In this document: one piece after another, positions 1,339-9,049 of the stretch
How the letters are laid out: every line of letters begins with the position of its first letter
How positions within the stretch are numbered: the first letter of the stretch is position 1
NCBI GenBank assembly: GCA_048939245.1
Contig: JBHLPR010000066.1
Location: 1 to 12,567, forward strand
Source of the DNA: Promethearchaeota archaeon
GTDB lineage: Archaea; Asgardarchaeota; Hermodarchaeia; Hermodarchaeales; Hermodarchaeaceae
Direction: 5' to 3'
Length of the DNA stretch: 12,567 bases
Translations under genes and position numbers: made by a program
The notes under the pieces: model-generated
Database searches by the model: none
The model's input: only the letters and a program-made list of their open reading frames with translations
What the model was told of the DNA's origin: nothing

Positions 1339-2073
1339 TCAGTCCTTCCTTTTTCGGAACCGCAGTATGATGTAGCTAACGGAGACAATAACGATGGCAA
1401 TTGCTAGAATGCCTACAAAGAGCATTGTGGTGAGATCGGTGGGGTTCTGTGTTTGAGTTATGAATTCAATCCCCAAGTGATAATCGTTGAGGAAGAAGAC
1501 TTCCGTATAAGCGGATAATAGGATTCCGGAACTAATGTCATAGACTAGTGTCGTATTTTGATTACCGAAGGGTCCTTGATGGTACACATAGGTTTTCGTT
1601 ATTGGTGTTGCAGTAATGTCTATACTTCCATTCAAGAAGTAACCGGAGGCTGCATCTGTGGCGTCTTGGTCGACGGTAATCCAGTCGAGATGAGATACTA
1701 GTCCTGGGAACCACGGCCAGATACTAAACGCTAGTTCTCCTGCGATTCGTGTATTATTGGCAAGAATCGTGAGGTTACCAATCGTAAGCAATCCGTACAA
1801 TTCGTCGTTGGTAATTTCCTGAATTTCAAAGGTCAATGGTTGTCCTGCTTGGGCTTTCCAGAAAGCTCCTGAACCAAATCCAAATTCAACGACTTCGCTG
1901 GTTACATTCGTTATTCGCCAATGAAGCTTAGGCGTACTCAACGCATTTGGATGGAGTCCTGGTGCATACTGCAAGGTTTGTGCTGAAGCAGGTTGAGCCC
2001 ATAATAAGACAACAGTTAGAGCGAAAATAAAGTTTAATCCTAGGATTGATTTATATTTCACGAATAATTTCAC
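1339..2073 (-). CDS. Secreted, C-terminally membrane-anchored surface protein of unknown function
   Basis: Signal peptide ending AQPASA, Thr/Asn-rich beta-type ectodomain with several NxS/T sequons, C-terminal TM plus RFRKRKD tail. The GTG start overlaps the upstream stop (GTGA). Confidence 0.75.
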   Translation of the reverse strand: MKLFVKYKSILGLNFIFALTVVLLWAQPASAQTLQYAPGLHPNALSTPKLHWRITNVTSEVVEFGFGSGAFWKAQAGQPLTFEIQEITNDELYGLLTIGNLTILANNTRIAGELAFSIWPWFPGLVSHLDWITVDQDATDAASGYFLNGSIDITATPITKTYVYHQGPFGNQNTTLVYDISSGILLSAYTEVFFLNDYHLGIEFITQTQNPTDLTTMLFVGILAIAIVIVSVSYIILRFRKRKD

Positions 2074-2694: not shown

Positions 2695-4215
2695 CTAATT
2701 TTCTACTGCTTTGATATAAGCTGCTAATTTAGCGATCTTGACTAATTTTTCTTTTCCACTTTTCATATCACGTACATTTACGGACTTCTTTGCCAGTTCT
2801 CGGGGTCCGATAATTGCAGCATATGGGATCTGTCGTTTACTGGCATCATCAAGATGTTTGGTAAGCGACCATGAAAACCCGTTGAATATCGTGCGTATCC
2901 CTGCTGCTCGAAGTTTTGAGGCGATTTCTCGGCAAATGCTGAGTTGTTTCTTTGATACGGGCGCGAGATAGATGTCTGCTGGTGGCTCCGGTGGTGGGAA
3001 AAGTCCAATCTCCTCTGCGAGTTCTAAAATGACGGTTTCTCCGAACCCAAATCCTGTTCCAGGTAGCGGCTGCCCGCCAAAGATCCCGACGAGGTCATCA
3101 TAGCGACCGCCACCTGCAATTGCACGGGGTAATTCACTTCGACGATCCCAGGCCTCAAAGATAATGCCCGTATAATAGTCGAGTCCACGGGCAATTCCTG
3201 CGTCAAATTCACATACGTCTGTGATTCCCAAATCATCCAGTTGTTTTGCTAGTTGGCTTAGGGGGTTAAGGGCTTGTTGTGTTGCTTCCGCTAATTGAAA
3301 CTCATTCATAGCTTGAAGGAATTCTATTGGTGGTCCCCGGATTGCAGAGAAATCTGTGAGTTTTTCCGCTGCATCTTGGGTTAAGCCAATGTTTATGAGC
3401 GCATTGATTAGCGCTTGGCGTTGGAGTTGAGGAAGTTGCCTTATCACTTCATTCAGTCTTGTTGACCGAGGAAGTTTCGGTTTTTCTTTTTGTTTTCCAA
3501 TATAGAAATGACGGAGCTTGAGCGCAATTTCTTCAGCTTTTCTAGCTGGGATTCCCGTCTTTGTAAGTTGATCAATTATTGTCTCTTGTAGAAGTTTTTC
3601 GCGGCGATCTAGCACACGGATTATTTCAATATAATTTGATAAGCCTAACTCATCGATGAAACTCTGGATTAGTCGGCGGTCATTAATACGAATAACAAAG
3701 TCCTTTGGTGCGAAGTCCAAGTCTAAGATGATGGCTGCTAGTATATTGATCACTTCAGCATCTGCTGCCACATCTTCAGTGCCCAATATGTCGACATTCA
3801 ATTGCCAAAATTCTTTGACGCGTCCTCGTTGTTGGGTTTCATCGCGAAATACTCGAGAAATTGAAAACCACCGTATGGGGCGTGGATAATATTGCTGTTG
3901 GACTGCTAACATACGGGCTAGGGATGGAGTTGTTTCTGGGCGTAAGACCAGTCGTCGCTCCTTGCGGTCAGTGACTTTGAAAGTTTCTTCAACAAGTGAC
4001 GGTCCCGATTTTAACTCATACAGTTCTATAGGTTCCACTGTGGGACATTCGTATTCTATGTAACCAAACAGTTTCGGGATTTCACGAAATGCCCTAAGTA
4101 TTCTTTCAATTTTCTGATAGAGTTCTGGATAAAAATCCCGAAAGCCACCCAACGCTAGTTCTTTGCTACGTTTCATTTTCAACAGCTCATATTCGTATTT
4201 CTCACTATTATCCAT
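2695..4215 (-). CDS. hisS: Histidine--tRNA ligase
   Basis: GFRDFYP, LRPETTPSLAR, motif 2 FRDETQQRGRVKEFWQ, HisA loop RGLDYYTG, GGGRYDDL, motif 3 GFGFG, C-terminal anticodon-binding domain. The start may be Met14 (4176). Confidence 0.97.
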   Translation of the reverse strand: MDNSEKYEYELLKMKRSKELALGGFRDFYPELYQKIERILRAFREIPKLFGYIEYECPTVEPIELYELKSGPSLVEETFKVTDRKERRLVLRPETTPSLARMLAVQQQYYPRPIRWFSISRVFRDETQQRGRVKEFWQLNVDILGTEDVAADAEVINILAAIILDLDFAPKDFVIRINDRRLIQSFIDELGLSNYIEIIRVLDRREKLLQETIIDQLTKTGIPARKAEEIALKLRHFYIGKQKEKPKLPRSTRLNEVIRQLPQLQRQALINALINIGLTQDAAEKLTDFSAIRGPPIEFLQAMNEFQLAEATQQALNPLSQLAKQLDDLGITDVCEFDAGIARGLDYYTGIIFEAWDRRSELPRAIAGGGRYDDLVGIFGGQPLPGTGFGFGETVILELAEEIGLFPPPEPPADIYLAPVSKKQLSICREIASKLRAAGIRTIFNGFSWSLTKHLDDASKRQIPYAAIIGPRELAKKSVNVRDMKSGKEKLVKIAKLAAYIKAVEN

Positions 4216-4268
4216 ATTGATAGTGAAAAATGGTGCCGGGACAGGGATTCGAACCCCGACCTAAAGCT

Positions 4269-4297
4269 TTCTGCATCCCATCTTTGAGAATGGGATT
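4269..4297 (-). other. tRNA intron 3, canonical 37/38, 29 nt
   Basis: Strict BHB: central helix CUGU/GCAG, bulges GG^A and AA^A, intron stem AUCCCAU/AUGGGAU. Confidence 0.93.
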
Positions 4298-4318
4298 CCA
4301 CAGGCTTCAATGCTACCA

Positions 4319-4340
4319 TTGCGCCTGGGTAAATACCAGT
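4319..4340 (-). other. tRNA intron 2, D-loop 15/16, 22 nt
   Basis: Central helix GUGU/GCGC, bulges AA^A and AA^U, intron stem CUGG/CCAG. Removal restores the D-loop AAUGGUA. Confidence 0.85.
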
Positions 4341-4347
4341 TTACACC

Positions 4348-4377
4348 TTCGGGAGCTGGTAACTAGCTACCAGCCTA
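4348..4377 (-). other. tRNA intron 1, position 8/9, 30 nt
   Basis: Central helix CGGG/CCCG, bulges AU^U and AA^G, intron stem GCUGGUAG/UUACCAGC, outer helix GUGC/GUGU. Removal gives U8-G9-G10. Confidence 0.85.
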
Positions 4378-4379
4378 AT

Positions 4380-4400
4380 CCCGGCACGGTGCCCGGCACG
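4380..4400 (-). repeat. 9-bp direct repeat CGTGCCGGG duplicating the tRNA 5' end into its leader
   Basis: Copies at 4400-4392 and 4388-4380 on the minus strand. Confidence 0.85.
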
Positions 4401-4424: not shown

Positions 4425-4440
4425 CAAAAAAACCTTTCCT
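4425..4440 (-). promoter_or_regulatory. Putative BRE/TATA-like promoter of tRNA-His
   Basis: AGGAAAGG-TTTTTTTG lies about 25-30 nt upstream of 4400. The same GAAAGGTTTTT motif precedes the M50 gene at 11218. Confidence 0.5.
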
Positions 4441-7049: not shown

Positions 7050-7763
7050 TTATTCTCCGGCAGGTTTGTAGATGACAAGGCATATAGGTACATTTGCTGT
7101 TGCCCAGTTTTGGTATTTGCCTTCGTACTTCAAACCATAATCACGTTGTCCTTGATTACCGAGGATAAGAAAAAGTGTATTGGCTCTGGCTTGTTTATAG
7201 AATCCGAGAAGCCATCTGTCTGTCCGGTGAAGTAATTTCTGCGCTAGTTCCAATGGGGGACGGCTAGTATGCTCTTTATAGAGGGTATCGAAATCTAAGA
7301 AGTGGATGTAGAGTAAATCGGAGCGATTGAGAAGTTTTGCGGTTTCAATATAGGTCCGCATATCACTATCCGCTGAGTGGAATTTTGCTTGGCCTGCAAT
7401 GTATTGTTGATTTTCGCGGTCTACAAGAACAGCTGATTTTCCTTGGTGAACAAGAAAGGAGAAGAGATTGAATCCATCGGATTGATTCCCATGGATGAGC
7501 TCATTGATTACGTTTGTAGCATATCCGTCCTTTGTGTCCAACGTTAATAGCAAACGGGCTTCTTTGAGTAAAAATTGAGGCTTATGTAAGGCAACCTCAA
7601 GCAGTCCAAAATTGTCAAGATGTACCAATACTACACGTTCTGTGGGTGCAAAAGCGGATAAATTGATACTTTGAGCTAACACTGTAGGTGCTATTAGTCC
7701 TAATCGATTTAAAATCGTGGCTGGCATCTGTACCATTTGCCCATCAACGTTATCAAATGACAC
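7050..7763 (-). CDS. Alkaline-phosphatase-superfamily-fold protein with degenerate metal ligands
   Basis: RVVLVHLDNFG, LLYIHFLDFD, LFLILGNQG and VPICLV occur in AP/NPP core-strand order. Start re-called to the GTG at 7763 (GGCGGGA upstream). The ORF-track start is 7871. Confidence 0.6.
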   Translation of the reverse strand: MSFDNVDGQMVQMPATILNRLGLIAPTVLAQSINLSAFAPTERVVLVHLDNFGLLEVALHKPQFLLKEARLLLTLDTKDGYATNVINELIHGNQSDGFNLFSFLVHQGKSAVLVDRENQQYIAGQAKFHSADSDMRTYIETAKLLNRSDLLYIHFLDFDTLYKEHTSRPPLELAQKLLHRTDRWLLGFYKQARANTLFLILGNQGQRDYGLKYEGKYQNWATANVPICLVIYKPAGE

Positions 7764-7867
7764 TATATTCCCGCCGATTTGCGACTTAAAATCTATTCTA
7801 GCTCTCTTATGATTACCTAAAAGAGTTTGTTGACACAAAATTGCGTGAAAGTGATACTGCGGTAATC

Positions 7868-9049
7868 TCAAATAGGCATTAGTACGAGAATAAAGACAAA
7901 AAATTGCATCAATAATATCATTATCCCTTCAAAGATGTCAACTTTCTGGTCATCATTTAGAGCGCGTATTAAGAACCATAATGATCCAGCTGCTGTCGCA
8001 AATTGTAATAGCACTGCAGCATCTAATGGGAGTGGGAGAAACATTGCTACACCACCTACGATAAGAAGAAGCACTTGGGTGGTTCCGCCTAAAGTATTGC
8101 CAATTGCGATGTCAGCTTTACTTTTTGTTGCTGCGATAATAGCGATGCCATGTTCAGGAACAGCCCCAGCTGCTCCAATTATTAGTGCCATAATCGCGAT
8201 TCGCTGGGTTTCGACGACTCCGATTGCAGACCAGGGAACAAAATCAAATGTTAGTTCCACTGCTTGTGAGAGCAGATAGCCTGCGATGAAAATTCCTACA
8301 AACCCTATGGCTGCTAGTACAACTGAATTTCGCTTAGAGTGTCGAGGCTCGGGGCGTATCTTGTCTTTTTCTGCGGGCTTTTTGACTGCGTATACTGCGT
8401 ATAGGGCATAGGAGAGAACCATAAGGAATGCAAGAACGGGAGGAAGAAAAGTGAGTTCCAAAGTAACACCATAAATGAGTTGGTTAACATAATGAAGGAT
8501 TCCAAACACAACAAGAAGGGCCATGGCTACTATTGTCCAACGTATGAGATCAGCATCGTCTTCGACAACTTCACGGGGAACGGTTATGTGTCCGGTTTTT
8601 CGTGTTGAAAGTACCACAACTATACCAAGTAATAAGATGTTGAAGCCTGCAGCCATAATTACACTCAATACCGCAATTTCAACCAACTCAGGGCTTGCCG
8701 TCAGGTATCCTCTCCAAGCCGTTAGGGCGCTGACAACAGCCTCAGGTGTATTAGAGGCGAGTGATGAAACGACTCCGATGAAATATGCACTCAACCCAAC
8801 AATGGCTCCCAATGATTCTAAACCATCAATGGCAAGATGAGAAGACCGAAATGTCAGCCAGACAGCAAATGCCATGGTTCCAATAATTAATATCAACACA
8901 TTTTGTAATACGAAAACAGAGAGAAGGAAAAAAATGAAAAGCGTAATGGCAACGACAACTTCTCTTCGTGAGATATGAAAGGCTTTGTGTAACGCAGATT
9001 CGCTCGTTAATATGTGTGTGTCCTTTTCATTGGTGTTGGTTTCAGTCAA
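7868..9049 (-). CDS. Ca2+/cation antiporter (CaCA family, CAX/ChaA-like)
   Basis: About 11-12 TM segments, alpha-1 repeat SSLASNTPE, alpha-2 repeat AAGAVPEH..DIAIGNTLGG, C-terminal FEGIMILL. Confidence 0.85.
   Translation of the reverse strand: MTETNTNEKDTHILTSESALHKAFHISRREVVVAITLFIFFLLSVFVLQNVLILIIGTMAFAVWLTFRSSHLAIDGLESLGAIVGLSAYFIGVVSSLASNTPEAVVSALTAWRGYLTASPELVEIAVLSVIMAAGFNILLLGIVVVLSTRKTGHITVPREVVEDDADLIRWTIVAMALLVVFGILHYVNQLIYGVTLELTFLPPVLAFLMVLSYALYAVYAVKKPAEKDKIRPEPRHSKRNSVVLAAIGFVGIFIAGYLLSQAVELTFDFVPWSAIGVVETQRIAIMALIIGAAGAVPEHGIAIIAATKSKADIAIGNTLGGTTQVLLLIVGGVAMFLPLPLDAAVLLQFATAAGSLWFLIRALNDDQKVDIFEGIMILLMQFFVFILVLMPI

Follow-up and report, generated by a model that had tools for sequence, protein, structure and literature searches.

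The 12,567-nucleotide stretch of DNA analysed here (the window; contig JBHLPR010000066.1 of assembly GCA_048939245.1, from a Hermod-group Asgard archaeon) carries on its minus strand a tRNA-His(GUG) gene interrupted by three introns, each with a bulge-helix-bulge (BHB) motif read from the sequence, followed 15 nt downstream on the same strand by an open reading frame for a histidyl-tRNA synthetase (HisRS). The features of this locus are as follows.

4231–4385, minus strand: tRNA-His(GUG) gene, 155 nt, spliced length 74 nt, with exons 4385-4378, 4347-4341, 4318-4298 and 4268-4231
4234, minus strand: discriminator A73, followed by an encoded CCA (4233-4231)
4386, minus strand: position -1, a T, with no encoded G-1
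4348–4377, minus strand: intron 1 at 8/9 (30 nt), the central BHB helix of which uses tRNA nucleotides 3-6
4319–4340, minus strand: intron 2 at 15/16 (22 nt), BHB
4269–4297, minus strand: intron 3 at the canonical 37/38 site (29 nt), BHB, with the anticodon GUG just before it
4386–4399, minus strand: 5′ leader holding a spare copy of the acceptor 5′ strand (4399-4392)
4426–4438, minus strand: conserved BRE/TATA-like motif 41 nt before the leader copy, inferred to be a probable tRNA promoter and conserved in 16 Hermod loci
2695–4215, minus strand: HisRS of 506 aa (Pfam PF13393 and PF03129), with about 56 extra residues (220-275) predicted to be helical
7050–7871 and 1339–2073 (minus): ORFs of 273 and 244 aa with no Pfam match, the first resembling by eye a degenerate alkaline-phosphatase-fold protein and the second a membrane-anchored secreted protein next to DUF4430 and an ECF S component

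ARAGORN and Rfam searches found no tRNA on the raw window, because the three introns interrupt the gene, but the spliced 74-nt sequence was called tRNA-His(gtg) by ARAGORN. When run with introns allowed, ARAGORN called the gene Cys, an assignment ruled out by the BHB geometry and by relatives that naturally lack the 8/9 and 37/38 introns (loci L013 and L015) and give the same junctions. On the minus strand, G1 is 4385, the base before it (4386) is T, 4387 is G and C72 is 4235. The first-pass annotation was right about what the sequence shows, namely a tRNA-His with A73 and no encoded G-1. It had named an assembly error at A73 as grounds for withdrawal; this was examined and rejected, as A73 is present in all 17 Hermod genomes in which the 3′ end was read. 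Exons are nearly invariant in Hermod, and this is the only GUG tRNA gene found in the genome that contains the window (G000, 88% complete).

The leader copy of the acceptor 5′ strand occurs in all 13 Hermod genes with the 8/9 intron and in none of the three without, as well as in genes with an 8/9 intron from two other Asgard families, f8 and f15, so that it accompanies this intron in three families (the window; L099 in genome G025; L242 in genome G056). The duplex between leader and 3′ strand was calculated at about -16 to -19 kcal/mol and was mostly weaker than -9.3 in genes without that intron, with one exception at -13.7. Folding placed the copy on the 3′ acceptor strand and freed nucleotides 3-6 for the splice motif, from which we infer that the copy is a probable stand-in for the 3′ acceptor strand while intron 1 is spliced. 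A fourth intron in the acceptor strand (3/4 or 7/8) was considered as an alternative meaning of the repeat but is disfavoured, since the 3/4 helix is all G-U in L011 and a 7/8 splice gives 7:66 mismatches in L001 and L010. This feature concerns splicing rather than identity, as position -1 is U in G000 under either reading.

To survey N73 across Asgard archaea, as the first-pass annotation had suggested, pattern searches were performed on 301 Asgard genomes and the loci were then read individually, yielding three states. A73 was found in 59 genomes of five families, comprising the Hermod family (f1) and four Heimdall-group families (f4, f13, f25 and f27), and in all 59 His genes read in those families. 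Position -1 was readable in 58 of these and is T in 40, A in 17 and C in one, but never G. C73 was found in f5, f6, f8, f9, f10, f12, f15, f16, f19, f21, f22, f29 and f30, with G-1 encoded in 47 of 48 genes read; the exception (G027, T-1/C73) has Thg1, so the survey recovers the known archaeal route. U73 with A at -1 was found in three genomes (L158 in G099, family f24; L189 in G046 and L266 in G036, both f9 genus g17), a possible A-1:U73 identity variant; the HisRS of G099 is highly divergent and on the same contig, and G036 has a Thg1 match. The patterns miss genes with T-arm introns, and no tRNA-His was recovered for f2, f3, f7, f11, f14, f17, f18, f20, f26 or f28. Loki-type tRNA-His (L257-L283, f9) has A37 instead of G37, and several carry an intron in the variable region or near 31/32.

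The f1 assignment rests on the closest HisRS loci (65-82% identity), which lie in Hermodarchaeota or Hermod bins. Family f27 includes a protein labelled Gerdarchaeota, f13 and f25 match records labelled Heimdallarchaeota, and the HisRS clade described below includes proteins with Heimdallarchaeaceae labels; reading f4 (closed genomes of 3.08 and 3.33 Mb) as Heimdallarchaeaceae and f21 as Hodarchaeales is our inference, drawn in part from the RpoB tree. In f27 (L139-L144, L177-L178), tRNA-His lies 0.3-5 kb upstream of hisS on the same strand in six genomes and its 5′ half is nearly identical to the Hermod one, while G123 has two A73 copies. A further family, f23, has A73 without G-1 in two genomes (L295/L319 in G212, closed, 4.36 Mb; L312 in G164), with no Thg1 (0/7) and with HisRS enzymes outside the clade (AU p 4e-68), and is independent of the Hermod/Heimdall clade. 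The HisRS of G212 has an insert at the Gly-Gly site and lies about 2 kb downstream of the tRNA, whereas that of G164 groups with the f21 enzyme.

A search for Thg1/TLP, also proposed in the first-pass annotation, was performed using Pfam PF04446 and a profile built from 13 Asgard Thg1 proteins. PF04446 was absent from G000 and from all 73 genomes of the five A73 families, two of them closed, but was found in 14 other Asgard genomes; the Asgard-trained profile found nothing in G000 (best E 0.18). As absence of Thg1 is the Asgard default (14/301 genomes have it), it excludes a route without favouring a G-1-independent one. Archaeal Thg1 is templated and adds U, with inefficient G, opposite A73 (PMC3245924). 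An RNase P RNA gene is present in G000 and in the four other genomes tested.

The HisRS beside the tRNA is the only one found in G000. At E ≤ 1e-45 it matches 69 of the 73 genomes of the five families and none of the other 228, and the matching proteins, of about 500 aa, form one clade (SH-aLRT 100). The 56 or so extra residues are predicted as helices in a confident model (mean pLDDT 92) and fall inside the insertion domain, which clamps the acceptor stem in the Thermus thermophilus complex (PMC4357726). Among 1.84 billion representative sequences only eight clusters scored above 300 bits, followed by ordinary 430-aa enzymes, and the clade has no close non-Asgard relative in this set. The best solved relatives are the HisRS of Thermoplasma (230 bits) and of trypanosomes (about 200 bits), whereas human HisRS scored 105 bits; a fold search ranked them alike, with human HisRS at rank 31 and lower. 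The enzyme is thus not of the eukaryotic cytosolic type by score and fold rank, although no eukaryote was included in our trees. At L017 (G007:C2:13038-14526), hisS is split into two overlapping frames near residue 166, a frameshift or assembly error.

Residues that hold G-1 in the T. thermophilus HisRS-tRNA structure (PMC4357726) are changed in this clade. The equivalent of Escherichia coli R123 is K in 129/135 clade proteins but R in 13/13 from C73 families, the R116 equivalent is T or S in 134/135, the R9 equivalent is R in 4/135, and the Gly-Gly pocket is never Gly at its first position (KE here; DD, as in Caulobacter, in the closed genomes G042 and G084). Each signal is imperfect alone: R116 is R in only 6/13 and Gly-Gly is retained in 8/13 of the C73-family enzymes, R123K is conservative, 6/135 clade proteins keep R and the Trypanosoma cruzi enzyme keeps that R. 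These changes are therefore supporting rather than decisive.

The five A73 families alone are rejected as a species clade on RpoB (p 2e-90), with f21 and f24 lying among them, so at least three changes are needed, of unknown direction. Horizontal transfer of the tRNA and HisRS pair into Hermod was suggested by linkage in f1 and f27 and by our first trees but is not shown: the HisRS data do not reject Hermod as sister to the four Heimdall families (AU p 0.39) and RpoB, assessed with quick trees on this one marker, does not reject Hermod plus the Heimdall-group as one clade (p 0.72). One ancient gain with two replacements and a transfer into Hermod are both compatible with these results. The HisRS of f21 (L149 in G210), a Heimdall-group family whose tRNA-His has G-1:C73, groups with Woesearchaeota/Aenigmarchaeota enzymes (SH-aLRT 96), suggesting replacement by transfer.

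The explanation that we favour, with fairly high confidence, is a histidine identity system that does not depend on G-1. The sequences themselves document a three-intron tRNA-His with A73 and no encoded G-1, an RNase P RNA gene, no detectable Thg1 and a single divergent HisRS next to the tRNA. What we infer from them is that the splicing endonuclease removes the introns, that RNase P cuts at the ordinary +1 site because no G-1:C73 pair redirects it, that nothing adds a G, and that the mature tRNA, which starts at G1, is charged by the co-occurring HisRS—with its altered 5′-phosphate pocket and enlarged insertion domain—through the GUG anticodon, A73 and the first base pairs, as measured for the Caulobacter enzyme (PMC3064791). 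All evidence is genomic, as neither mature RNA ends nor charging were assayed and no sequencing reads were examined, and which elements replace G-1 is not shown. In favour of this view, two closed genomes (G042 and G084) show the full set of A73, T-1, no Thg1, clade HisRS and RNase P RNA, alongside the family-level co-occurrence described above. However, the five families are kin and may represent one event, so that the co-occurrence does not amount to 59 independent tests, and C72 is kept, whereas U72 matters 91-fold in Caulobacter (PMC3064791).

The interpretation offered in the first-pass annotation—a eukaryote-like Thg1 activity, a retained U-1:A73 pair or a G-1-independent HisRS—is partly supported, in that the third option fits best, a specific U-1:A73 pair is unlikely and a eukaryote-like Thg1 is not supported, while its term ‘eukaryote-style’ holds for the tRNA gene only. 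The best-surviving rival, which we consider unlikely, is that RNase P cuts one base upstream and the encoded -1 base (U here) is kept, with the HisRS requiring the extra 5′ phosphate but not a G. T-1 can pair with A73 and G-2 with C74 in Hermod, where T-1 occurs in 15/16 genes; furthermore, Aeropyrum HisRS accepts A-1 and C-1 (PMC9976931) and Caenorhabditis elegans gets G-1 opposite A73 without Thg1 (PMC4338351). However, T is the -1 base of 20 of 30 other tRNA genes in G000, including 7 of 10 with G73 (none has C73), so U-1 is not special to this gene; with the same HisRS clade, 17 genes have A-1 and one C-1, which cannot pair with A73; and the pocket residues are the ones changed.

Less likely still is that G-1 is added after transcription by an enzyme too divergent to be seen, or unrelated to Thg1. 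A73 without encoded G-1 is the eukaryotic gene pattern (PMC3245924) and most genomes are incomplete drafts, but the Thg1 searches described above found none in the 73 genomes, including two closed ones, and the HisRS is changed at the G-1 pocket and is not of the human cytosolic type. Finally, a second, ordinary G-1:C73 tRNA-His, unassembled or hidden by other introns and leaving this gene accessory, is very improbable even given the incompleteness of G000 and the genes missed by our patterns, as no C73 His gene was seen in any of the 73 genomes with one doubtful exception (a bacterial-looking C73 match in G162), closed genomes show one A73 gene, exons are nearly invariant in Hermod and the gene sits beside the only HisRS.

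A more speculative and unlikely, but not excluded, reading is that A73 without G-1 was the state of the Heimdall-group ancestor and that eukaryotes inherited their A73 tRNA-His from it, the odd untemplated G-1 addition by eukaryotic Thg1 then arising as a patch after a G-1-requiring HisRS replaced the Asgard enzyme. In this view the C73/G-1 state of f21 (probably Hodarchaeales) would be a later replacement, which fits the grouping of its HisRS with DPANN (Woesearchaeota/Aenigmarchaeota) enzymes.

G-1 is one of the most nearly universal tRNA identity marks, and reviews list archaeal tRNA-His with C73 (PMC9976931, PMC3245924) and place the C73-to-A73 change in early eukaryotes. Here, A73 without encoded G-1 appears in the archaea closest to eukaryotes, with its own synthetase clade, and again with unrelated enzymes in a second Asgard family, which makes the origin of the eukaryotic G-1:A73 mismatch testable with a simple charging assay and offers a possibly orthogonal HisRS/tRNA pair, although the link to eukaryotes is not shown. 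Literature searches pairing Asgard or Heimdall with tRNA-His, G-1, HisRS or the discriminator, which largely did not extend to subscription journals, found no report of such a system in archaea, and a 2026 preprint on Asgard introns (10.64898/2026.10.13.758758) has no mention of discriminator, G-1, leader or Hermod. The way of working is, however, already established in bacteria and protists.

Among known systems, the G-1-less tRNA-His and divergent HisRS of the alphaproteobacterial RCS clade (Caulobacter crescentus; PMC3064791, PMC4357726) share A73, no encoded G-1, loss of the Gly-Gly pocket, extra inserts in HisRS and covariation of tRNA and enzyme. The present pair differs in its archaeal host, in G1-C72 rather than G1-U72, in a 7-nt D-loop rather than one of 9 with U20a, and in an insertion that lies in the catalytic insertion domain, not the anticodon-binding domain; it thus lacks the U72 and U20a of the alphaproteobacterial pair, and the relationship of the two enzymes was not tested directly. 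The G-1-independent systems of Trypanosoma brucei and Acanthamoeba castellanii (PMC4338351) likewise have no G-1 and no role for Thg1, and trypanosome HisRS are the second-best solved relatives by sequence and fold, but T. brucei has U73, identity is only 26-28% by structure alignment, the motif-2 loop is different and there is no 56-residue insertion. The standard eukaryotic route, in which Thg1 adds untemplated G-1 opposite A73 (PMC3245924), shares a gene with A73 and no G-1, but here no Thg1 was found, the HisRS is not of the cytosolic eukaryotic type and CCA is encoded. The standard archaeal routes, with encoded G-1:C73 or with C73 and templated Thg1, share the GUG cloverleaf, BHB introns and RNase P RNA, and both were seen in other Asgard families, whereas C73, encoded G-1 and detectable Thg1 are all missing in these five.
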